Shown here one piece after another: positions 45,641 through 64,000 of a stretch of DNA of 64,000 bases. Position numbers and translations under genes: made by a program. The stretch spans positions 9,256 to 73,255 of the forward strand of contig MU004245.1 of NCBI GenBank assembly GCA_010405405.1, given 5' to 3'. Source of the DNA: Microthyrium microscopicum. Its lineage: Eukaryota. The notes beneath the pieces were generated by a model. It saw only the letters and a list, made by a program, of their open reading frames with translations. It was not told where the DNA came from and did no database searches. Within the stretch, counting starts at the first letter, position 1; every line of letters starts with the position of its first letter.

Positions 45641-48147
45641 TCTAAGGAGTTAGAAATAACTTTAAAATAACTATAATAACTTACAATAACTTTAGAAATA
45701 ATAAAATAGATAAGAGGATTTTACTAAAGTCTTAAGTTAAATAACTAAGTAACTAATCTAGCTATGCGCCTAAACGTCTTACTATAGGTTAAAATATAGG
45801 ATTTAGTACCTTTAATTTAATCTAGAAATAAAAAGATTAAAAACTATAGAGTTAGTAAGGATTCTAGAAATAAATAAAAAAAGGAATATTAAAATCTAAA
45901 AAACTTTTTTAGGCTACAACTAGTAATAGCTTAATAGTAAATTCTAATTTAAATTATAACTTACGTATCTAAACGAGGGCTATCTTGCAGTATACTTTTT
46001 ACTATTATAGCAATTATATTTAAAAAGTTATTAATAGAAATTAAAGAGTAAAAAATATATTTATCTTTAAATAATTATAACTTAATTAACTTTTAAGATA
46101 TAAAAATAATAACAATATATCTAGATAGAGCTTAATAAGCTCTAAATATTAATTTAAAAATTATACCTAAAAGTTACCTATTTAGGTTACAAGGTCTCTA
46201 ATAACTACAATAAATTTTAAATAATTATAATAGATTTTAAATAATTATAATAGATTTTTAATATATTTTAAATAACTATAATAAGTTTAAAATAACTAGA
46301 ATAATAAGAATTATTTAGTACTTTATTTAATATATATCTAATACGTATCTAATATCTTTAAAATAACTAAAATAATTATTTTACTATTAAATATATAGTC
46401 TAATTTATAATATATAATAATTTTTTTATAATAAGTATAACTTATATCTTAAAATAGAAATAGTTACTATATCAAAATATTTTATTTTTATATATAATAT
46501 ACTATAATCTAAGTATAGAGTTTTAACCTAAATTTACTAGATATTTCTATAAGTTTTACTTAAAAACTAATAGTTATAATTCTTTCTATTTTTTATAGTA
46601 TAGAAAGTAATAATTTTTAAAGATAGTAAATATAAGTAATATAAACTCTAGATTATTTATTTTATAATATTAAATAAATATATAAAATATATAGAAGCTA
46701 TAAGTATTACTACTAAAACTACGTAGAGCTTAATAGTTACTAGTAAACTTAATTTAACTTAGATGTAGCTATATTAAAACTAAGTTATATAAATTTTTAC
46801 TTATTCTATATACTAAAATTAAGTATCTAGATAAGTAAAGAAGTAGAGTAGACGTAATAATAAATTAAAAGTTACTAAAGAAAAGTAAAATTATTATAAC
46901 TTAAAGTATAATATAATTTTTATAAGAAAAGTATTAAATAATACTATATAAGCTATTTAGATATTAGTCTAATATATAAATTATAATACTTATTATAATA
47001 GTTTACTTTACTTAGATAATACTCTAGAAAATACTTTAGTAATATAGTCTAGTTTATAAGCTAGTAAAAATTAAGAGAGTAATAGATAATAGTTTTAGCT
47101 TAATAAGAAAAAGCTTATATATTCTCTAACTATTAATTATAATGTAGCATATATCTTAATTTATAACTCTAAATATATATAGTCTAATACAAAGCTCGCG
47201 CAAAGAAACTTTAGAAGCCGTAGTTTAAAGGTTAAATTGCGTTAAATAGAAACCCTATACACACACCTCTTTCGCGCAGAAGAAGCCTATTAAAGCTTTA
47301 CCTTAACGAGCTTAGTAAGCAGGAATTTTTCGAGTCAAAAGGGAAAAAGTCTGCTCTTAACTCTGGTGACTCTAAAGTGCGTGAAATGACAATATAGATA
47401 CTAATGCTTTTAATAACCAAAGCCTGGAGAAAATGCCGCATTTGCGGTAAGGTAGGTAGGTAGGTACCTTGACCGTTGACGCCACCCTAACAACCAGAGT
47501 TAGATATATGTATCTAAAAACTTGTTGGCTTTGAAGCTGTGCTCCGTAGGCAGAAGTGAGTTACTTGGTGAAGCCTTAAGAAACTTCAATTGTTTAGTGA
47601 TAGGGGATTGGTGGAGGTAGAGTTAGGCTGACCACAAGGCTGAAGAGGCAAACCTAGTTCGCAGATTAAGCGCTACCTCCGGAATGCGGTGGTGTTTTTG
47701 GTAAGGCAGCGGTGAATGGTAAAAGTCAACGAGTTGCTGCTGGAATGTTCTTTGTGTAAGAAAGGTGGGCTTACAGGGCAGGCACGGATCGCACCCTGGT
47801 CTTTTTGCCGCGAGATGTTAAGGCTGCAATAGGTCTACGTGGTGAACATTTGAAGCTCTGGCTCAACTTCTCAAGTGGCAGGACCATCCCAAGGTTGAAG
47901 GTTCCTTCCTTCACCATCTCAACCAGCTTCACCACAACTCTTTCACTCTCCAACATCTCCAACATCGTCTCGCTAGTCTGTCACTCTACCATTCATCCAA
48001 CACTACAAAACCTCGTCCTCCTTCTCCCTCCTCTCTTGCTATCCTCAACTCTCTTACACCAACTCTCCATCTACTCGCTGTCCCAACCACTGTCATCTGT
48101 TCCGTCCAAAACACCACTTAATCACATCAAAGCTCCAAGCTGCCAAT

Positions 48148-50874
<2,727 letters not shown>

Positions 50875-52485
50875 GTGCTTACAGGCTCTTGGTTTGTTTG
50901 TGCATTCGGATCGGTAAACTCGCCATGGGTGGAGTTTTATGTGTTGGTGCTTGCTGTCTTGAAGTGTCATGTTTGCCTTGTGTCGAGTCGGTCGGTTTCA
51001 TCACGGTCGATTAGATTGGGTTAATGTTAGTTGCTTTTGTTGACTTACTCACCCCTTGTTGCTGCTTTTTGATGAAGAAAAATCACCATTGCTTGATAGA
51101 GTTTTTGTGGGCATACGGGACGGGCTAGGTTAGACTTGTAGTAGCTTTGGGCCTTGTAGTGTATGTACTTCATAAATATAAAGGCATTAGGTTCTCAAGT
51201 ATTGTCTAGTTTATGCTTTCGCTGCCGTGATATATGTACATTATTTTTGGGCAATATCAAGTGGACTCTTTATATTATCACTTTGATTCTGTAGAGTAGC
51301 CTCTCTTCAACTGCGATTTTATGACTCTCCTTTGACTATCAGACACTTTTCATGCTGAATACTCTTTTCATGTGCTCCTCTCTGATGTCGAAATGAGTGA
51401 TCCTTTTGGACACTGATGGAATTTACAGCTCAACTACGATGTCTTTTATCTACCGTGCTCCGGCACCAAGTGCTGTTTTCCCTAGAGGACGTCTAATTCC
51501 TAGCGACTTATCCAATAACGTAAAAAATACCATTCTTTTAATATTAAGATAGTATGGTAAATATCGTTATGAGGTATTGCGCGAGTTGATACCTCGTCTA
51601 TTTTGACGCCGCAGACGCGGAGCGCAACTAAGGTTGCATGAGAGGCAGTGGCGTATGAAATCTATCCGGACACTCCGGATTGGCTTAACAGGTGAAGGCT
51701 TAGCATATTCCAGATCTCTTCCAACTACCTTACAAACAGCGTAGGCGAGCAATCAATCCGTCAACCAGGTTGTGACATTGCGCATCCCTCAAAGATCCAG
51801 ATGTTGTCAAGGTCCTTTCGTCAGTTCAAACGTTCCCTTTTAAGAGACAAACTTCAACAACCTAGGATTTGATCCATTACTCGTGTGCCGTTCTGCATGA
51901 GGTTCTGTCAAAAGCAAGTGGATTTCTCCCATCTCACTATCTCTAGGATCGCCATGCATGCAATGCTACCGTAGATCCAGCCGATTCCCAATCAGGGAGG
52001 TCAAATTCAACATTGCAGTCCAACCACCAGCATAGCACTACCAACTTGTAGACGCTTCTCTACCCGAACATGTCCATAATTATCGGTTAGTGGGCATCAC
52101 GCTTGAACGTCTGTGGTTCTGGCGGAGTGGCTATCATGCCCAGTTCTCAGTCGCCCGGCTAAGTGACGAGTTTACTATTCGCTCTGCTAGCTACTTATCA
52201 GCTAGAGCTAGAGAGTGGAATTCATCCTGCGAGCATGACGATCACCCGGTCAATCCATGATGGATTCCTCCAAGATTCCGGGAATGATTCAAAAACAAAA
52301 GCATTCGCCTCGAGGCCATGCTGCAAGGGTTACATTCTCCCACGTTAGGTAGGTACATTAGATGTATATATGGACACTGAGAAGCGGACTTCGATCTTAG
52401 TTGGATCGAACTCTTTCTCATTCAGGGAAGAAATCACACCTTGACAACGCTTAGTCCCTCTCGTTTTCCGTGAGCTCCAAGCAAG

Positions 52486-54261
52486 ATGAGGAGTACAATG
52501 CGTTTCGTTACCAGTGCCGTCAGCCTTCTATCCCTTACAGCGGCCCAGTTTGTACCAGCACCAACCGATCTACTAACGAAAGTCGGCTATGCAAACGTCA
52601 CAATCCGCTATAAGGAAGTACCGGCGGGTATTTGCGAACTAGATCCAAATGTGAAGTCTTATTCGGGTTATGCGGACATAGCAGCCAACCAGAGCATCTT
52701 CTTCTGGTTCTTTGAGACCAGAAACGACGACCCTTCGGATGCTCCGCTGACCGTCTGGATAAATGGAGGACCTGGAAGTAGTTCTATGATTGGTATGTAT
52801 TGGTCATGCCACCTCCTTCGCAAGTCAAGTCTAGCAGAAGTGTACTAATGCTCGCGACAGGTTTGTTCCAAGAAAACGGACCTTGTACTGTGGATGCGAA
52901 TTATAACCCAGTAAACAATCCATACTCGTGGTCAAATGTTACAAATATGCTATTCATAGGTTTGTGAAGAAATCATCGCTATGTATCAAGAACTGTCTAA
53001 TTCTGCTGAAGATCAACCTGCGCAAACAGGACACTCCTACTCGATACCTGTTCCAGGCTATCTTGATGATTCTGGATCAATTGTTGAATTGCCGAACAAT
53101 ACCTGCCCTGATATCGCCAATGGCACCTGTGGAACATTCTCCAAGCCCGATACTTCTCTCACTGCAAACTCAACAGATGCTGCTGCCTCGGGAATGTGGA
53201 AAACACTTCAAGGCTTCATGGGAGTGTTTCCTCAGTACGACCGGAAAGAATTCTTTTTCACGACCGAGTCCTATGGTGGTCACTACGGACCAGTGTTCAA
53301 CGAGTACATTGAGAAACAAAATGCAAATCTACCAGAAGGTGCAAAGGAGATCGCTCTAGAAGCAGTCCTAATCGGCAACGGATGGTACGATCCACTTCTA
53401 CAATATCAAGCATACTACAACTATACCGTATTCCCAGGAGCAACCTACGACATTGAATTCTTCAACAAAACCATCCAAGACCAGATGTACGACAACCTCT
53501 ACGGCCCTACAGGATGTGTACCACAGCTCCTAAACTGCTCCAGCACAGGCTCCAACAAAATCTGCTCCGACGCAGATAACTTCTGCTACGAGCAAGTCGA
53601 AAACTACTACGACATCTACGCCGGCCGCGACGAATACGACTCGCGCGAACTAGTCCCCGATCCCTTCCCACCAGAGTACTACGTGCAATACCTCAACACG
53701 CCAACAGTGCAAGAAGCCATTGGCGCCTTTGTCAACTTCACCGAGGGCAGCAACACTGTCGGCGACGCCTTCGGCAGCACTGGCGATGATGCTCGCGTAT
53801 TAAGCATCATTCAAGATATGCAAGACCTCATCAACAAAGGCATATATGTTGTCATGTATACCGGTGATGCAGACTATAACTGCAATTGGCTTGGTGGCGA
53901 AGCTGTGGCGGAGGAGATTTGTGCGCCTGGATTCGATGATGCGGGATACACTGATATCAAGACATCTGATGGTATTTCACATGGGCAGGTGAAGCAAGCG
54001 GCCAACTTTGCGTTCCTGCGGATCTATGAGAGTGGACATGAAGTTCCGTTCTACCAGCCGTTGGCGGCGTTGACTATGCTTTGGAGAGTTTTGAATGGGA
54101 AAGATGTCGCTACGGGGAAAACTGCTATTAGTGATAGCTATATCACTGTGGGAACACCGAAAAGCACGTATCGTGAAGGGAACGCTACGGTCCAGTTTGG
54201 TCTGGTTCCTACGAATGCGACGTACAATACTACGACGAACGAGCCGAATCCTTTTAGATAA
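52486..54261 (+). CDS. Secreted serine carboxypeptidase, family S10 (carboxypeptidase S1-like; exons 52486-52792, 52861-52959, 53012-54261; start may be 52498)
   Basis: Signal-peptide-like N-terminus; WINGGPGSSS, spliced FIDQP, ESYGGHY (catalytic Ser), GDADYNC (Asp) and SGHEVP (His); many NxS/T sites. Confidence 0.96.
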
Positions 54262-54747
54262 GTAGCGGATGGGGCTTTTAATACTGGGAGACCAAATTTA
54301 ATGTTATACTTTAATGATATTACATCTTACCAACCTGATTTGAGTCTTCAAATGGTGAAGTTCTGAGCCAGGTTATCTCATTGTCTTGTAGCCATAAAGC
54401 ACTCCGCCACAGAGAGAAAGGCTCAAATAATTTGCTCATTGATAAGTTGAATCACTCGTCTTCAAGAGGAAGATATAGAGACAATAGCGAATTGATATTG
54501 GGGTATAGACAGTGAACACTAAAATTAGTTGATCGAATCATCATTCGTGAATGATGAAGCACCATATTTTTAACAATAAACGACAGAATCAGCGAGATCA
54601 GACAGCGAAATGTATCTCTCCTATACTTCTCCACCTCCACATTTACCGCATCCAAATCTTCCATTACGTTTTGTATCATATCCAAAACTCAAATATGCCA
54701 CGACATAAAAGTGTAGCATCGCTCTAGGTCTTTTGAGAACCTTTGAT

Positions 54748-57240
54748 CTAAACCGTCTCCACACCCGTCGAATTACCCGTCGCTGGCTTATCCTTAACCA
54801 TCACATCCGCCAACGTCTTTGGTGGCGTGACATCCTCAAACTTATACAACGATGGCTCTGGCATGCCCTTTCGTCGAAGAATGTAGCGCTTGACCCAGTA
54901 TGGCGCAACAGTACCGGTCTGGTATTTCATATGTGTGCGCGTTGGCACGGCAAAGACATAGTCGAGTTCTTCGAGTGTACGCTGCTTGGTCTCCGGTAGC
55001 CAGAAGAAGATCATCCAGAAAGCGAGGAAGTTCATGCCGGCGTAGAAGCCAAAGACACCGACAGGCTTGAAGGCGCGAAGCATACGGGGGAGGGTGAGGG
55101 AGAGGATGGAGCCCCAGAAGTTGTTGGTGGCGACGGCCCAGGACATGCCGACTTCTCTGTGAGATAGGGGGAAGACTTCGGCTGAGTAGGTGAAGGGCAC
55201 GGGTCCTATTATGTGTTAGTCTTGATACTAAATTGATTGTTCAGTTAGAGTATTTGTTTACCTTCTCCGGGGCTGTAGAATGCATCGAAAATGTAGATGA
55301 AGAAGGCGATCATTCCAAGATGAGCCCTTGAGTCTGTGGGGATGTAGAAACAGAAGCCGGCTGCGAGAAGACTCCAACACATATTAGGGAAAGTGAATAG
55401 AAGGAGCTAGAAATATGTTAGTAACTGGGTCAAACATGAGAGTTTAAGGTAAGGAATGACATACAGCTCGTCGTCCAAAGGTATCAATTGTCCATACAGC
55501 TGGCCAAGCGAAAACGAAATTGATCAATCCGAATCCCCATGAAGCAAGTAGAGATGTAGTGGGACTACCTCCAGCCTGTTCGAAGATTGTGGTGCTGTAA
55601 AAGGCAATGATGTTGACTATTCAATGGTCAGCCGAATACCTTGCATAATCCTCAGGTATTTATACTTACTTCCGCACATCTGCTGAGCAATCATGACAAT
55701 ACCCGAAGCTTGAGTGGCGCGTCGAATACGTGGAATGGTGAAAAGTTCGCCAAATCGAGTAAAGAAGTTGCTGTTTGGCGATAGACCAGACTCGATGATA
55801 AGAAGTTCCTCTTGTCGGAGCAGAGCATGTGCATAGTAAAGATCTCTTGCAGCTTGAACCTCCGAAGATCGTAATCTCTTGAATGACCTATCGATATTAG
55901 TTGGTTTTCTGCGATCAAAGTTTGCATGAACTTACGCAAAAGCCTCTGTATAGCGTTTTTTCTGCATAAGCCATCGAGGCGACTCAGGACAGAAGAAGAT
56001 GCCGATGACAAGAGGTACAGCAGGCAAAAACGCGCTTCCCAGTTGAAGACGCCATGCTGCCACTTTGGTAGAATCCTTCACAATGAGATTTGCACAAGTG
56101 CCGAGGAAAATCCCAAAAGCTGTCCAAATTTGCCTGCGAGCACATTAGATATTGATATGTTGAAGGGCGGCCGAGAACTTACCATGTCATGACCAGGCCA
56201 CCGCGCACAAGAGGTGGTGCGACTTCTGCGGAGAACACAGGGACAGTGACTTCTTTCAAGCCCATGCCTATAATGCGGTCAGTACCAAGAAGCAAAAAAG
56301 GTGCCTACATGATTCTTACCAATCCCAAGAAGCATACGACAGGCCAGAAGTTGACCCCATGTCTGAGAACAGGCCATACCGAATGGCGCGCACAAGGAGA
56401 AGACTGCGCCAATGAAGATAGTAATACGTCGACCGAACAAGTGGTTAAGAGGGTCTGAAAGCCATCCAGCACTGCAAACTGTTAGCTAGCTCCAAGTAGC
56501 GTCAATATTGTATACGGCTTACAAAACGCAGATAGTGATATATGGCATGGCATTGATTACTCCCACGATCCAGTTGTTTTTATCGCACAGAGCGGACGCT
56601 GCAGGACTCGCATCGCATTGGGTGCCGGAGTCTGGAATACCCAAAGCCAATGGGAAGGAGATGTTCGCGCCATTAGAACCTGATTAGTTGTAAGTATGTT
56701 AATCGTGGTGCCATCCTCTCGAAACTGACCTGTTTGATCCCATCCTTGGATCGCAGCTGCGATGGAGTTGAGAATGATGGTGAAATAAAGAGTCCTTGGG
56801 TGTCTCCATCTATGAGCCTGCTCCTGGCGCAAAGACTCTACTTCACCCGCATCGAGTTCGCCAATGGTGTCGTACGCGAAGGGACTTTGGGCCACCAGTG
56901 CGCCTTTGCGGAGTAAGGGAAGTTGATCGGTTAAACCGCCTTCGGAAGCAAATCGTTCAACGTCGGCGAAAAGTTCATCTTTGGGGATTCCAATCAGTGG
57001 GTTGCGAATTCTTGGTAATAGTTAGCGCTACAATTAGACAATGGTGTGTATTTTTTACTTACTCTCCAGTTACATTAGAAGACAGCTCTTGGCCAATACT
57101 GCTACGCCGTCTCGCAAAGGAATCAGAGCGAGGTACGTCTTGCCCGGTCCTACGTTGTGGTTAGTATCACCGAATACGTCAAAGCTCGAGTCAACGAGTC
57201 GCAATACTAACTTCTCGGGAATTTCTGCCTTCTCGGCCAT
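54748..57240 (-). CDS. MFS sugar porter, polyol/inositol-transporter-like (~11 exons)
   Basis: The spliced product begins [10 protein letters not shown] and contains [50 protein letters not shown] and [12 protein letters not shown]. About ten short GT-AG introns. Confidence 0.94.
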
Positions 57241-60200
57241 TGTGGGTGGCTGGACAAGTCAGAGCAAAGTAGCAATGAGGTACAAATATACAATGGATAA
57301 TGCGAACAACCAGATCAACTACAGCGACTTATCCTGTGTAAAGAAGTAAGACGCGCAGGAAGGGTTTCGATAAAGGGAACCAAGAAACAAAGGTCGGGGC
57401 TCTGCTTACTTTTAACAGGCCATATTAAGAAGAAGAGGCTTTGGCTTGTTCGGAGCATATTCATGCTGTCCAGTGCAGGTTATTGCCCCAGATCCCAGTT
57501 CTCTCCACCACCACCGGCGTTGGCTATGCTTCCCTGCATCTTGGTCTGCTTTCTTAACCCTGCCGCCAATGGAAAAGATATGCGGGGTTACGATCATCAC
57601 TCCACGATTTTGCATATCCTCTGTACTCTTGCCGTTTCTTACAATTGGGCTGTGAGCCGTCTTACTCGCCTCCGTGCAGACGATCGACACTGACTCATCC
57701 TGTTTAGGCAATGTTACAGCGAGACCAGTGGTTATTACGCTCTTCATCCCCAGGCCACTTGACCGTCGCGAGCAATGGCGGGTAGTAACTTGTAGTTAGT
57801 AGCAAAAAGATAATCGGATCCAGGAGATGTTTGGAAGACGCCACTGGTTGTGTCGTTCATTCATCACTTGTACGCATGACTCTTTATTCTTGGTGGCTTT
57901 CGCGTTCACAAGACAAAATGTTGCTTTCCCAGCCCCGCGTAGAAGACACCAAACAAGACCAGGCGTTCGGTCGTACAATAATGGACACCAAAGGCCTAAA
58001 ACAAGAGCTCCAAAAGGTAACGTACCCAAAGGGTCGACGCCAAGAACCGGTCGCAAAAAACGCGGAGCCCCGTAAGGAGTTTCATGTAATGTCGATCATA
58101 TCATATTGGATATTGAGTAGCTAATCACAATTAGACAGCCTTGTACATTGCAACCGCAGGCCGACTGTACCGTTCATCTATGGGACGAGGCAGACCACAC
58201 TGTGTCCATTTTACTCCAACGTAAGCCCGCTCATCTACGCAATGTTAATGGATGGCAAAGAGCACAATAATTGTTGCAGGTGAGGTTGGAACATTTCTGA
58301 GCATTGTTTTAGCGCGAGGCGGACCACGGGTTCAGCGCAACAGTTCTGTGCAATGACAGCATCAGCGCTGTGTCGGCGCTCTGAATGGTTCATTTCTCAT
58401 GCATCTCATTCTTTCGATGCGGTTAAAAGCCCACTAGGAACCGGCAACACCGCTCCCCTTAGGAACAAGGGCCGATCAGCTTTCCTACCATCTCTTCCTC
58501 AAGGGGCCGGCGATTATTGGTTGACTGATCAGCTTTTGATGGTCAAGTCAGGTCATGTGCAGAATTGGCGGACAAGGACAAGCTTTGTACAGTCGGCTTA
58601 GAAAGCTTAGGATGAGCTGTTGTTTCCGGGGTCGTTCGTGACTTGGCTGTAACCTTACATCAATGTCAAGTGGCTCGTGGAGAACGAGTTGCTGCAGGAG
58701 AGCAAGGGCGGGCTCGCGCATGTATAGTCATCTTATTTGTATCCCAAGTCATCGGAAGCGGGGCACTTTTCCACGAGCGAAATATCGTGGAGTTGTCGTG
58801 TCGATCTCCAAGTTTGTGGAAAAAGGGTTCTGGAGGGCACATGGGCATTCCCTGGAGATGTTAAGCTGTCAAGATGTCTTTCGGCAATGATCTGTACCAC
58901 AGACTTGAAGATGCTACAAAAACTCCCACCACGAACTTGTCGCGAAATTGTGGCGGGAGAATCCACAAGCGGAGGAATGGATTCCGCAATATTCAATGTC
59001 ATCACGCGATATTCAAAAATCATTACAACCGGCAGTAATTTTGTATGCAATGCTTTTGTATACCTATCACTATCGCCTCTTCCATCCACCTTCCAGAAGT
59101 CTCGGCTGCTGATGGTCTGTCCATCCATGTATGTCTTGGTATGTGTTTGTCTTATGCCGCTGTTTATAATCTGGTACCAATGTTTCGAGGCTCTTTCATC
59201 AAATGGCAAGGCACTCTTCGTTTTGACGCAGGAGTGCCCGAAGCACAAGATGTAGCGCGGAATCATGCTGTGTACCACGTAGCACCCACCACTTAAGAGG
59301 ACCTTATTCGCTCTGGTATAGATGCTACGCTAGTCTGCGGAGTGCCTCGTGAGTGCCTCGTTTAAGAATGGTCAGAATGTGGGGTAGCGTAGAGACGATC
59401 ATTGTTCAGGCCCATCAATTTTTTATGCCAGTACAGTTAAAAGTGGATATACGAAGGCAATCTGATTGAAAGGAGAGGATGCGATGTACTTGTAGATAAT
59501 ATTTGGAATCAGACTGGAAGTAAGACGTTCGTTTAGCTGGCTTGATCAATATAGAGATGGTCAGAGTCTTGGTGAGAGCAGAGGTGATGCATACGGTATT
59601 TGATCGTGGATGAGAGGTCGTGATCAGAGAACTGTGCTTCATGTGGAGACCAGTGGATTATTTGAGCATCATTGATTTTGCACGTTGTGTAATCAATGGT
59701 CTCACATAGTATGCTACCTTCACAGTACTGGTGGCAGCTGACAACATAATGTTTATGCGGAGAATGATACCTAAACACGAAGTAGACAGAATATCAACTG
59801 AGGGACATATATATCGCACATTTCGGGCTCAGACGATGGCATCCGTTGCTTCTCAGAAATGACAGACATTGATATCTCCTCGCGCTTATTCAATCCTTAA
59901 CCATGCCCCAACATTGCAAGGTCAACAAACACTCAAAAACCATGACGTGGTATGGAGTAGATGGCAGCTTATCAAATATCAAGTACATAGTTAGTGAGCA
60001 CACGAGATACCTTGTTCATCAGGCCAAACTGCCCTGTCTGAGTTGACGTCCCAAAGAAAAAATTGCGGTAGCGGATGAGACGAAATGAGGGATCTTGAAC
60101 TGACAACTAAAAGATCGTGAAACTCGATCAAGGGCTGTCTAGTGTGGGTTCATATCAGGGAATGTTATCAGATGCATCCTAGCACGATACTTGACACGGT

Positions 60201-61507
60201 CTCCCGTCCCGTTCAAAAGCTAAGACACGCGGAAGCGAATAGAGACTCTTGGATAGAGCAACTGCTGTTGAAGGTTTGGTTCTGGAGGGTTGGACCTAGA
60301 TTTTGTGCCAAAAAAGTACTCTACAGACACCAAAGCTGGAGGAAATTAAATAAAGTCCAGAGGACCTGTGGCGCATAAGTTCAAGCGATTGAGGCGCTGC
60401 TTAATTTTGGATGGAAGGTTTAGACGAGGAGCTGAAGTTGTCTTGGACTGTTGGTGAAGAATCACGAGCACACAAGCAGCTGGAGAAGAAGGCTGAAAGA
60501 GTGGATAGAAGATCTGATATGGGCTAGGAGATGAACAGATTGATGGTTGAATATAAAACAAAAGAAGACATGGGAGAAGTGTTGAATGTTTAGAAACTGT
60601 CTCAAGAAGATCAAAGAAGTGATGGGTATGATAGGGGTGCAGGCTGAAGCAAGGCTGTAAGGCATGAGTGGGCTGGTAGCTCAAGAAGGAAAAAGGCAGG
60701 AACGATGGAAGCAAATTTGGGGTTGGCCTACCGTTCTGGGAAACATTGAACGGAGAGAGAGTGCAGTGTGCCTGCCAGCCTGCCGCTGTTGTACTGTAGA
60801 TAGTGCCTGGGTGCCTGGGGTCTCGGTTCTTGGGGTATTCAGCGATTTTTGGCAGCATTGGCAGGCGCGACTCCACTTGACCCAGCTCGAGCGAGCCAAC
60901 ATTGAAAGCCTGAACTTTGAAGGCACAAATTTCCCCTGGATCACCCCTTGCAAAAAGAGACGATTGCTTGGTTGGCTAGAGTAGAGTACTCCCAACGCCC
61001 AGCCGTCTACTCCAGATTCCAGTTGCAACAATTCTACAAATCCCTTTCCATTTTCATTATCGCTCAATTTCCCCTAAGTTTGTGCTGATACTGCTTTTCC
61101 CACGCTCTGGAAGCACCATTCTTTTCCCTCTTCCACTTTCCCGAATCCCGACACATTGTTTCCGCTTCCTCGCATACGCTTGCCAACTGCTTCTCCATTG
61201 GCCCGTCCTCAACTTCGTCTACACATTCTGCGACGCTTCGCTTCTGCTCCCCCCGGACTCCATTTGATTCGAAGCTGGCTGGCCGGCCTGTCTTCATCCT
61301 TTTCACAACTACATCCTCGTGCTCGCCCTCCATTGCTTTCTTCACCACCAACAACCCATTCATCTCTATCAGCTGTGCTGCCAACTGCCGTCCGCCTGGC
61401 TGAGGCTTTGCGCCCACTGCGGATCGGCAGATTTCCACCGCTGAACACGCCAACGAGTCCATAATCCACGCGACAACCGCCCGTTTCAAGCCTATCTCAA
61501 TTTCAAA

Positions 61508-64000
61508 ATGACACGACCTTCCATCGTCCGAGCAGGTACACATTGTTTCCCTCGTGTCAACACACAAACTTATTGTTTCCCCCACTTATCTCACGTCTAC
61601 AGATACCATCGATCTTCAAGATCAAAACTCTCCTTCTGCGCAAGATCACTCCAAATCTCATCTTAACGGTGGTCCCGTTGGCCAAGCCGCTCCTCATCAA
61701 GCCGCCGAGTTACGACACGTCCAAAACGAACGTCACGCCGAAGAAGTGGCCTTATCAAACGCCTGGAGTCATAATGGTCAAGGTCTAAGTGACGAACCCC
61801 CATCGGAGGACGACGACATGTATGCTCGCGCCGAGCAACTAACTGGTGATACTCTTGTACATCATAATGGAGACCTCTTGGGGCCATCAGAAGGCTCGGA
61901 CACTGGTGATGATGAAGATCCCCTCGGAGACGATATGGAAAGAGCTTCAAGTTCCCCGTCAATAACTGATGGTGGGTTACCCCAATTTCTCTGGCCTCGT
62001 CGGTCTTCTTCTTTGACGCCAATTCAAACACCAGTGGGAACTCCCACTCGCGATTCGTTTGGCGCTTCTGTTCGCAACTCTCTTCTCAATTCTTCTTCGC
62101 CTTTTCCAAATTCTCTTTCGCGCGATACAGTTCCACGTTATTCGTCGCCAATTTTCGGTTCGGATACCGACCTATGTAGTGATGAGGTCCCGGACCAGTC
62201 ATCATCGCCTTTTGTGTCCTCTCCCGAAGATCTTTCATGTTTTCTTTCAAGATCAACCTCTCTTTCTTCTCCGCGTCATCATCATTGGGGTGAGTATACA
62301 ACCTTTAAAACAACAAACGATCTTACGGCCCTACTTTCTCCGGAAAATGACAACGACTTCGCTGGTCAAGGTAAGCCATCCGCCGAGGAACAGGCTCTAG
62401 CGGACGAGGAGCGAGACGAACTTACTCCACTGCTCTCTGAACAAGAGGAATACTTTTCTAATGGCCTACAACATCGCCGATCTCTCTCACGATCGCCCAC
62501 GGACAAGCCACTGCCACGTTTGCCATCGCCAACAAAGGAGGGATACGTAGGTATGGACCATACGGTAGCCAAGGAGAGGATCACCGAGAATGAAGTCTTT
62601 GAACGCGACCAGGAAACTCCGACGAAAAAAAGCGCTGCTGGCACTAGCGAGGCCGCTTCACTAATTGCAGAAAACGACTCAGAGGACGATTCGGACTGGC
62701 TCACGGAATCCGAAGATGGTGACAGTTTTGATTCCCTTCTCTTCAATGATGATGAAGCAAAAGTTTTTAAACGTTCCTTAACTTCTGCGTTATATTTTAC
62801 GACTGGCTGGAATGCACAAAGCTTACAAGAAACAGAAGATATTGATTTTGATTTGGTTTATGCTCTGCATAGCTTCGTTGCTACTGTGGAGGGACAAGCC
62901 AATGCCGCCAAAGGAGATACCATGGTATTATTAGACGATAGTAATAGCTATTGGTGGCTCGTCCGAGTTATGAAAGACAGTACCATTGGTAAGTCAAAAG
63001 CGCCCACAAGGAAGACAACTTCTAACAATCTTTAGGATACTTACCGGCGGAGCATATTGAAACCCCTACAGAACGATTAGCACGACTCAATAAACACAGA
63101 AATATCGACGTAAGATGATTTGAGCATTTCAAATCTTTATGCTAATCATATCAGGCCACAAAAATGCATTTTGAGGATTCATTAGAGAAACCTAGGAATC
63201 CCTTGAAACGGGCGATGCGAAGAAGAAATCAGAAACAGGTCGCCTTCGCAGAACCTACATACAGAGATGCACCCGTGTACGACTATACATCGGACGAAGA
63301 AGAAGAGGACGAGGAAGGCGAAATGCAAGCACAGACTAATGGTCAGACGAATGAAGCTCAAATGACTCAAGAGGAAGACTATGAAGACGAAGACGAAATA
63401 ACCGCTGTTGCCCCTCTGAATGTTCGCTCAACAGTCAAAGATCCACAACAGCCTGTCGAAGAATTGGCACAAGAAGTCGATCAAAATATGGGTCTGGCAG
63501 AAGAACAACAGTTTAATGAAGACGGGGAGCGAGGTAAAACACACTTTTCGGCACATTCGTTTCTGTTTACTGACGGTGAATTAGTGGGACCTTCACGATC
63601 AAGGAACGGAACTGTCAGAAATACAGACTCATTCTTCAAGGACGATACGGCTGAAACTAGAAAGATCACCATAACTCCTAAGCTATTACGCGATGAAAAT
63701 GGTTCCACCATGGAAGTTACCCGAGCAAGCAATAGTATGGATCGAGGAAGCAGCTTTGACTTTTCCGACAAGCCTGACAGAAAAGAAGACAAGAACACCA
63801 AAAAGAAAAAGGGCATGTTCAACATATTCAAGAGAAGTAAAAGCGATAAGAAATACAAGGAGGAGTCAGTCAATTCGACCAAGACGTCCTCGGAATTCTC
63901 TCGTGAATCTCCTGCGCCTACGTCTGGCACGGTTTCTCCAGCTGAAAAGATATCTCTTGACAATGGCGTCCAACGCAAGGGAAGCAAAGGAGGCAAACTA
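61508..64000 (+). CDS. tea4: Tea4/TeaC/Bud14-like SH3-domain cell-polarity protein (3' end outside window)
   Basis: ATG at 61508; removing intron 61536-61602 gives MTRPSIVRADTIDLQD. SH3 domain VYALHSFVATVEGQ...DDSNSYWWLVR...GYLPAEHIETPTERLARLNKHRN, RVxF-type PP1 motif KQVAF (63233-63247), and RNTDSFFKDD block. Further introns at 62989-63035, 63110-63154 and 63534-63584. Confidence 0.9.

Follow-up and report, generated by a model that had tools for sequence, protein, structure and literature searches.

The last 2.5 kb of a 64,000-nucleotide (nt) stretch of contig MU004245.1 of Microthyrium microscopicum (assembly GCA_010405405.1), which is referred to below as the window, contain the 5' two-thirds of a gene of the Tea4/TeaC/Bud14 type on the + strand, according to a gene model read from the sequence. 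Within the second exon of this gene lies a segment of 864 nt (61972..62835, + strand, phase 1), which starts with GT, ends with AG and comprises 288 codons without a stop. In the most probable reading, the segment is a true spliceosomal intron, whose phase-1 position in the gene is ancient and which selection has kept translatable, and thus represents an exitron. The spliced message codes for a protein of 795 amino acids, in which EDIDF and the SH3 domain follow directly on the motif SSSPSI.D. The retained RNA would yield an isoform of 1083 amino acids with a disordered insert of 288 residues, which would separate the conserved N-terminal region from the SH3 domain. Tea4/Wsh3 of fission yeast, TeaC of Aspergillus nidulans and Bud14 of budding yeast possess an SH3 domain followed by an RVxF-type motif and act as cell-end or polarity scaffolds that target type 1 phosphatase (PP1). 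The insert may alter the regulation or the anchoring of such a scaffold, and the suboptimal splice signals (GTGGGT and CTTAC) would permit its partial retention.

The segment had been proposed as an in-frame exitron candidate in a first-pass annotation made from the letters of the window, and its position is exactly as given there. The 5' splice site G/GTGGGT (61972..61977, + strand, with the G at 61971; the slash marks the splice point here and below) lies within the codons GGT GGG T.. (Gly-Gly). The letters GCTTAC (62821-62826) belong to the presumed branch site AGCTTAC (62820..62826, + strand; codons AGC TTA C.., Ser-Leu-Gln), whose candidate adenine A62825 is located 10 nt before the AG. 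The 3' splice site CAG/ (62833..62835, + strand) closes the sequence ACAG at 62835; its A ends a variable codon and its G begins an invariant Glu codon. Joining 61971 to 62836 gives ...SSSPSITD-E-DIDFDLVYALH, and retention inserts 288 residues, including DKPLPRLPSP, which correspond to residues 133-420 of the annotated protein of this genome (P0001, 1083 amino acids). The first-pass annotation described the segment as more than ten times longer than the introns of about 45-70 nt elsewhere in the window; the other four introns of the same gene measure 67, 47, 45 and 51 nt. It sits within one open frame (61512..63035); P0001 reads through 61972-62835, and conserved peptide motifs flank the segment on both sides.

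Exon 2 contains 2442 pairs of GT and AG at a distance of at least 40 nt, of which 889 are spaced by a multiple of three, and such a spacing is therefore no evidence by itself. The open frame is a different matter. Across the segment the coding frame has no stop codon, and the other five frames have 6, 18, 17, 6 and 11. The probability of 288 open codons is 1.7e-6 by composition, and none of 200,000 shuffled sequences was open; the open frame of the segment is not due to chance. The G+C content of the segment (0.484) falls within that of the exon parts (0.42-0.51) and lies above that of the four small introns (0.29-0.43).

Splicing was looked for in the RNA contigs of one public run, which were compared with positions 60900-64000 of the window under a 31-letter rule for the bridging of a joint. 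All four small introns are skipped in these contigs at GT..AG ends, which indicates that they are derived from processed RNA. One contig (4674 nt, mean word depth 290.5) joins 61970/1 to 62835/6 and thereby skips 864 nt between GT and AG with one ambiguous letter, so that the predicted joint of 61971 to 62836 is present in RNA. A second contig of the same run (735 nt, depth 28.5) covers 62130 to 62864 without a break and crosses the acceptor, and thus an unspliced form occurs beside the spliced one. A third contig (depth 665.2) continues downstream from 62835. In our reading, the contigs meet in a de Bruijn branch at the 30-mer 62835-62864, which is entered from the joined path and from the retained path. 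No contig covers 61971-62129, the 5' 159 nt of the segment, and this gap carries no evidential weight. The first-pass annotation had expected two isoforms, and two RNA forms are indeed present; its emphasis needs to be shifted, since splicing accounts for most of the RNA and for the protein that is usually annotated, and the retained form is minor. The joined-form contig also covers all of 60900-61507 upstream of the start codon; 1034 of its 4674 nt fall within the compared stretch, and it extends by about 3.6 kb more beyond 60900. Either the 5' leader is very long or the contig overlaps a neighbouring transcript.

Both forms are found among homologous proteins. A query with the exon-2 translation returned 842 longer proteins at E<=1e-3, and the 120 listed ones were aligned; at least 100 residues are kept between the anchors in 118 of these 120 and at least 180 residues in 97. 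The ends of the segment lie in conserved motifs, namely DKISSSPSIDD/GGY.LP..WP.R..SL.TP at the donor and SW.TDSDADSW...DDD..D.SFSDD.RFIDSGWGGECLRET/EDIDFEFVYALH at the acceptor. A query spanning the junction returned 1305 proteins, and the spliced junction SSSPSI..-E-DIDF is present in 118 of the 120 that were listed. Joined proteins are annotated in Botrytis cinerea (Bcbud14), Fusarium verticillioides, Zymoseptoria tritici, Parastagonospora, Trichoderma and Podospora, and likewise in Aspergillus, Talaromyces, Trichophyton and Blastomyces. Among the few listed exon-2 matches that depart from the long form, a record of Verruconis gallopava named 'variant' reads SSSPSISD-E-DIDFEF, which is exactly the predicted junction. 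The short and long homologues mentioned in the first-pass annotation were thereby verified among the matches listed. The annotations are split even within genera: the short form is given for Botrytis cinerea, Plenodomus biglobosus, P. lindquistii and Pseudocercospora fijiensis, and the long form for their congeners B. deweyae, Plenodomus tracheiphilus and Pseudocercospora eumusae. Records named 'variant' occur in Verruconis, Phialophora, Cladophialophora, Exophiala and Blastomyces. A partial removal, from the same donor to differing internal acceptors, was observed in several further records (P0072-P0076 and P0084 from Alternaria; P0032, P0036, P0051, P0095, P0115); six Alternaria records, five of them from A. 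alternata/A. gaisen and one from an Alternaria sp., read SIDD/EIKSTEHHRGEY. These partially removed proteins may be gene-prediction choices or further isoforms.

Orthologous DNA was collected by a scan of metagenome contigs, which yielded 80 loci. Eleven of them are joined-form contigs resembling complementary DNA (cDNA), and 58 are genomic with a long segment between the anchors; the others carry an intron of 52-53 nt (three loci), an intron of about 110 nt (three) or no intron (one), lack the 5' part (three), or have a long open segment with a variant motif (one). The 58 long loci and the window were clustered at 95% nucleotide identity into 40 lineages, 39 from metagenomes and the window itself. 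GT and AG are kept in 40 of 40 lineages, and the length of the segment is a multiple of three in all of them, at 34 distinct lengths between 420 and 882 nt. The segment is free of stops in 34 of the 40. The comparison shows that most lineages keep the segment divisible by three, open and, as judged from its substitutions, under purifying selection, with splice signals that are fixed at synonymous sites.

The lineages that depart from this pattern deserve mention in their own right. In one of them (L047/L048:4480-5113) the segment has 609 nt, a multiple of three, and GTGGGT, TGCTTAC and CAG are kept, yet it contains ten in-frame stops and neither the internal donor nor the helix arm described below; the translatable state appears to have decayed there and splicing to have been kept. 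Three Eurotiales-like loci (L013:2134-2260, L018:610-740 and L027:4276-4400; SH3 motif ALHN or similar) possess, unlike the 864-nt segment of the window, a plain, frame-shifting intron of 52-53 nt at the same site and in the same phase, with the donors GTATGG, GTACGC or GTCAGT and the branch sequences CTGAC or CTGAT. Another group (L028:3926-4100, also L029 and L030; SH3 motif EDIDFEMVYALHTFTATVKGQ) has a T-rich, stop-filled intron of about 110 nt with the signals G/GTGTGT ... ACTAAT ... CTAG/. The intronless locus (L075:38-330) reads SSSPSIPDTEIDFEFVYALH and has an intron neither here nor in its SH3 coding region; the contig stems either from cDNA or from a yeast-like lineage poor in introns. 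The intron position is old in the Tea4/TeaC/Bud14 orthologues of filamentous ascomycetes.

The splice signals are written into codons whose synonymous positions do not vary. All 40 lineages use GGT for the first Gly codon, compared with three to four codons in other invariant Gly columns, and the donor hexamers are GTGGGT (25 lineages), GTGCGT (6), GTAAAT (4), GTAATT (2) and three others with one lineage each. A heptamer (T/A)(G/A)CTTAC is present in all 40 lineages, 8-14 nt before the 3' splice site, as TGCTTAC in 38, TACTTAC in one and AGCTTAC in the window. Its Leu codon is TTA in 40 of 40, compared with at least four codons in other invariant Leu columns; the next codon always starts with C, and the third base of its Cys codon is C throughout. 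The branch consensus of fungi is CTRAC, from which the heptamer departs. The heptamer is presumably the branch site, and we infer that CTTAC is the nearest stop-free version of the consensus, because CTAAC or CTGAC would read TAA or TGA in frame. Lineages with a short, untranslatable intron at this site use CTGAC, CTGAT or CTAAT. At the other end, all 40 lineages have A as the last base of the codon that precedes the invariant Glu, even though this codon stands for different residues (T, I, A, S, L, V, P; ACA in 18 lineages, ATA in 12, GCA in 3, TCA in 3, and others), and the last three bases of the segment are CAG in 25 and TAG in 15 lineages.

The interior of the segment evolves like coding sequence. 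The alignment columns W71, P72, R88, S148, P149, F150, P161, R530, D533, S534 and G535 are conserved with free third positions (entropy 1.7-1.9 bits), and the conserved motifs are WP.R..SL, SSSPF..P.HFPL, LP.DDPLLDN and RFIDSGWGG. The ratio of nonsynonymous to synonymous substitution rates (dN/dS), with signal codons excluded, is 0.23-0.61 in 11 of the 11 pairs with usable divergence (out of 780 possible), values that protein-guided alignment biases downward; for this reason, 15 pairs were re-aligned as nucleotides. The nonsynonymous rate (dN) in the adjoining SH3 codons is about 0-0.02. In the nucleotide alignments of these 15 pairs, 41 of 43 insertions or deletions are multiples of three, and the two exceptions both come from the pair with the greatest divergence. 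In 11 of the 15 pairs, codons change most often at their third position. An AlphaFold2 model of P0001 (97 sequences) reached a mean predicted local distance difference test (pLDDT) score of 45.1, with the SH3 domain itself poorly modelled; residues 133-420 are without confident structure, and the model is too poor to place the conserved RFIDSGWGGECL motif against the SH3 domain. The picture is that of a disordered region carrying a handful of short conserved motifs.

The first-pass annotation had further suggested that the long isoform might carry its own SH3 ligand. This part found no support: KPLPRLP is peculiar to this organism and unconserved, the stretch aligns with the motif LP.DDPLLDN, which is not of the PxxP type, and among 97 long-form homologues a class I motif occurs within the segment in only 11 and a class II motif in 28. 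What stands of the exitron reading are the intron, its splicing in RNA and the conserved open frame divisible by three; the frame has decayed in six of 40 lineages.

Several observations weigh against a functional exitron. The RNA data consist of contigs and not of reads, from a single run whose kind can only be guessed. On their shorter sides, the joined contig extends 30 letters past the joint and the retained contig 29-30 letters past the acceptor, which is one letter under the 31-letter rule, and the ratio of about 10:1 in favour of splicing is only rough, as the depths are contig means. The retained RNA could be unspliced precursor, and the evidence for its translation into the long isoform is conservation at the protein level, from which we infer it. 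No long-form cDNA was recognised among the 80 loci, all 11 cDNA-like contigs being short, which is a weak test, as the SH3 intron is absent from many genomic loci. To these points are added the downward bias of the dN/dS values and the fact that the 288-residue peptide of the window alone matches only 8 proteins at E<=1e-3 in 1.84 billion, all of them fragments of 162-497 amino acids, so that conservation is limited to short motifs. The frame has decayed with one stop in five lineages and ten stops in a sixth, and some lineages have a plain intron of 52-53 or about 110 nt at the site, or none. Finally, a transcript of Pyricularia oryzae TEA4 (MGG_06439) retaining the 579-bp second intron was reported beside the normal one (PMC8475275). 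According to the covered part of that report, the spliced form codes for 812 amino acids, and retention leads to a premature stop after 263 amino acids and is treated as aberrant (PMC8475275). From its position and size (579 bp, a multiple of three), this is most likely the same intron; there, unlike in M. microscopicum, retention truncates the protein.

The main rival is that the segment is a constitutive, long and inefficiently removed intron, whose frame is open only so that the unavoidable unspliced transcripts give a harmless or still working protein; the long form would serve no purpose of its own. In favour of this, the short form prevails in RNA, in the cDNA-like contigs (11 of 11) and in many curated annotations, the frame is lost in six of 40 lineages and in P. 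oryzae and the intron has shrunk to a plain one in others, the insert is predicted to lack structure (in a poor model), and conservation of the whole peptide is weak. Such a fail-safe is nevertheless unlikely. Interior residues are conserved across fungal classes while synonymous sites vary freely, and harmlessness alone would not preserve the motifs WP.R..SL, SSSPF..P.HFPL, LP.DDPLLDN and RFIDSGWGG at a dN/dS of 0.23-0.61. It also leaves unexplained why an intron of 420-882 nt is kept where 52 nt suffice elsewhere.

It is far less probable still that the segment is a plain intron misannotated as coding, with an open frame that is an accident or relic and retained RNA that is mere precursor. 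Splicing as the major outcome would fit this, as would the description of retention as aberrant in the covered part of the P. oryzae report (PMC8475275). An open frame has a probability of about 1.7e-6 in this genome alone, and the comparative data already contradict an accident, with 34 of 40 lineages open, 40 of 40 divisible by three at 34 lengths, 41 of 43 insertions or deletions in multiples of three and a coding pattern of substitution. A plain intron predicts full splicing with stop-filled orthologues and a plain exon no junction at all; junction and retained contigs both exist, and 34 of 40 orthologues are open. Hardly credible is a plain coding exon, for which the joined contig would be an artefact of reverse transcription or assembly and the short proteins errors of gene prediction: the annotated protein of this genome does retain the segment, and a single contig of the one run shows the joint, whose shorter side has 30 letters, but the joint has exact GT..AG ends and an overlap of just one letter, so that no repeat is available for template switching, 118 of the 120 proteins listed (from many pipelines) and 11 independent cDNA-like contigs are joined at the same position, all 40 lineages keep GT, the branch-like heptamer and AG without variation at synonymous sites, and some lineages have a stop-filled short intron at the same site.

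Beside the outer splice sites, the exitron that we favour probably contains two further elements at the RNA level. About one third into the segment lies an internal element resembling a 5' splice site, G/GTGAGT (62290..62295, + strand; codons GGT GAG TAT, phase 1; context G/GTGAGTAT), and the part from there to the acceptor (62290-62835) comprises 546 nt or 182 codons. Of the 40 lineages, 35 keep GT here and 33 keep GTRRGT. Different residues are encoded (E in 22 lineages, R in 8, G in 5, K in 3) yet the RRG pattern is kept, which points to a constraint at the nucleotide level and not at the protein level. No medium-form protein was found among the 239 homologues collected, and no joint from the internal donor among the RNA contigs. 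A third donor-like site in phase 1, G/GTAAGC (62371-62376; codons GGT AAG CCA), was also observed; the retained contig reads through it.

The second element is a putative long-range RNA helix. Its 5' arm, the H-box GCGTCATCATCATTG (62273..62287, + strand, His codons), ends just before the internal donor, and its 3' arm, the D-box CAATGATGATGAAGC (62744..62758, + strand, Asp codons), lies about 90 nt before the 3' splice site. Together they form the inverted repeat I2, with arms of 15 nt that are 93% complementary and 456 nt apart. The His codons at the H-box are CAT in 73 cases versus CAC in 4, compared with 18 versus 22 in a control column. The 27 nt that precede the internal GU find their best partner, in most of the 40 lineages, at a site beginning 83-93 nt ahead of the 3' splice site; the predicted stems have 12-19 bp and show compensatory changes such as CGU with ACG and CUUC with GAAG. 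Cognate arms reach a mean of -22.7 kcal/mol versus -17.3 kcal/mol for non-cognate arms and are better in 36 of 40 lineages; 0 of 5000 permutations reached the observed total, and the mean z against shuffled arms is -3.7. Two points count against the helix: RNAalifold predicted 0 pairs on a gappy MAFFT alignment of the 40 sequences, so that the helix rests on our own duplex and permutation scripts, and the (CAT)n and (GAT)n tracts could partly result from slippage. Further inverted repeats in the window are I1 and I3-I9, of which I7 is topologically incompatible with I2.

The helix would loop out about half of the intron, whose length is exceptional for a fungus, and together with the internal donor it probably tunes the efficiency of splicing or the choice of donor. 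As it abuts the internal donor, we suggest that it either promotes splicing from the outer donor or controls the use of the internal one. Intronic stems which shorten the distance between 5' splice site and branch point in budding-yeast introns were reportedly described by Goguel and Rosbash in 1993 and by Libri et al. in 1995. As in those introns, complementary segments in a long fungal intron would loop out sequence and would be kept via compensatory changes. In contrast to them, both arms are coding here (His and Asp), some 300 nt separate the 5' arm from the donor in use, the same arm directly adjoins an unused internal donor, and the effect on splicing is putative. A bolder extension, which we regard as possible and put forward only tentatively, is a three-way switch: the weak outer donor, the strong internal donor abutted by a covarying helix and the stop-avoiding branch site would together give rise to short, medium and long Tea4 isoforms, whose disordered region might re-tune where and when the scaffold brings type 1 phosphatase to the cell tip, by a device that would be ancient and shared by several classes of filamentous ascomycetes.

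The host gene (61508..64000, + strand, continuing past the end of the window), which the first-pass annotation had linked to Tea4, could be confirmed as one for a Tea4/Bud14-type SH3 protein. Among the homologues of exon 2 are records under the names Tea4, protein phosphatase regulator and Bcbud14, with E values down to 1e-59 and 100% coverage of exon 2. The Pfam domain SH3_1 was detected with 25.3 bits (cut-off 22.9) at residues 430-476 of P0001, encoded at 62862..63049 (+ strand) and split by an intron of 47 nt (62989-63035, + strand). After the SH3 domain follows the RVxF-type motif K-Q-V-A-F (63233..63247, + strand; residues 523-527), which we take to be the PP1 docking motif; an RVxF-type motif behind an SH3 domain is presumably what defines the Tea4/TeaC/Bud14 family. 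K523, V525 and F527 are invariant across 14 sequences; among 97 sequences, V525 never varies, and conservation is at least 90% for K523 and F527. The order of SH3 domain and RVxF-type motif is thus the same as in Tea4/Wsh3, TeaC and Bud14.

As read from the sequence, the exons of the gene are 61508-61535, 61603-62988, 63036-63109, 63155-63533 and 63585 onward (+ strand), and the model agrees letter for letter with P0001. Beside the intron in the SH3 coding region, the small introns on the + strand are intron 1 (61536..61602, 67 nt) and two ordinary introns of 45 nt (63110..63154) and 51 nt (63534..63584); all of them are skipped in the RNA contig. The 51-nt intron is missing from P0001; it is likewise a multiple of three and free of stops (17 codons), and at such a length an open frame by chance is not unlikely. 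In windows of 2 kb, the G+C content is 15-29% over positions 1-47500 and 45-50% over 48000-64000, where the genes sit. This sharp boundary resembles the AT-rich, repeat-mutated isochores of some ascomycete genomes.

Exitrons of Arabidopsis and human, including the EIx3 class, were described by Marquez et al. 2015 (PMC4484396). As far as the covered parts of that paper go, the segment resembles them in lying inside an annotated coding exon, in its canonical splice signals, and in its lack of stops and its length divisible by three, and also in its exon-like G+C content, its synonymous-dominated substitutions, its disordered region with short motifs and the frame-preserving internal deletion caused by splicing. 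It differs from the exitrons treated there in that the spliced form is major and the retained form minor, that it occupies an old intron position which holds a plain short intron in other lineages, that it is conserved across fungal classes and not at the species level, and that it contains a putative second, internal donor and a putative long-range helix (PMC4484396). Among the titles and abstract openings of the listed papers on exitrons and fungi, with subscription journals and supplements outside the scope, no fungal exitron was found.

To our knowledge, fungi rarely make two working proteins by alternative splicing. The intron of PTC7 was reportedly the subject of a study by Juneau et al. 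in 2009. SKI7/HBS1 and PTC7 are the textbook cases of two-protein splicing in yeast, and the PTC7 intron of the Saccharomycetaceae was described by Marshall et al. 2013 (PMC3597508). According to the covered text of the latter, the PTC7 intron is, like the segment presented here, fungal, a multiple of three, without in-frame stops and conserved among species, with the capacity lost in some lineages. As in the segment presented here, spliced and unspliced mRNAs of PTC7 both have the capacity to encode a protein; functions of the two isoforms were shown for PTC7, whereas translation of the retained form is suggested by conservation here. The PTC7 intron is short (a related one has 103 nt) and encodes a transmembrane helix that changes localisation, in contrast to the 420-882 nt and the disordered insert of the Tea4-type gene, and the phylogenetic span of the latter, in the Pezizomycotina, is different from and wider than that of PTC7 (PMC3597508). 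In the literature on splicing or introns of Tea4/TeaC, as far as it was covered, no description of the conserved frame was found, and the remark on P. oryzae was the only relevant one; conservation of frame or signals is undiscussed in the part of that paper covered (PMC8475275). Likewise, no translatable-intron isoforms of Tea4/Wsh3, TeaC or Bud14 were described in the literature covered. Exitrons and translatable introns of the PTC7 type are already known, and the present case is a well-supported addition to them, with unusually clear overlapping codes.

If the exitron reading is true, a further case of two proteins made by splicing would be added in a core polarity gene, and it would extend over the Dothideomycetes, Leotiomycetes and Sordariomycetes, among them many plant pathogens and model moulds. 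The segment would also be a natural example of overlapping codes, with a donor, a branch site, an acceptor, a second donor and a helix within an open reading frame, in which the branch site visibly compromises to avoid a stop codon. As annotations disagree between close relatives, it may go unnoticed that orthologue tables, deletion designs and tagging constructs for Tea4/TeaC/Bud14 are aimed at different isoforms. Strains locked to one isoform are predicted to differ in polarity, septation or development.

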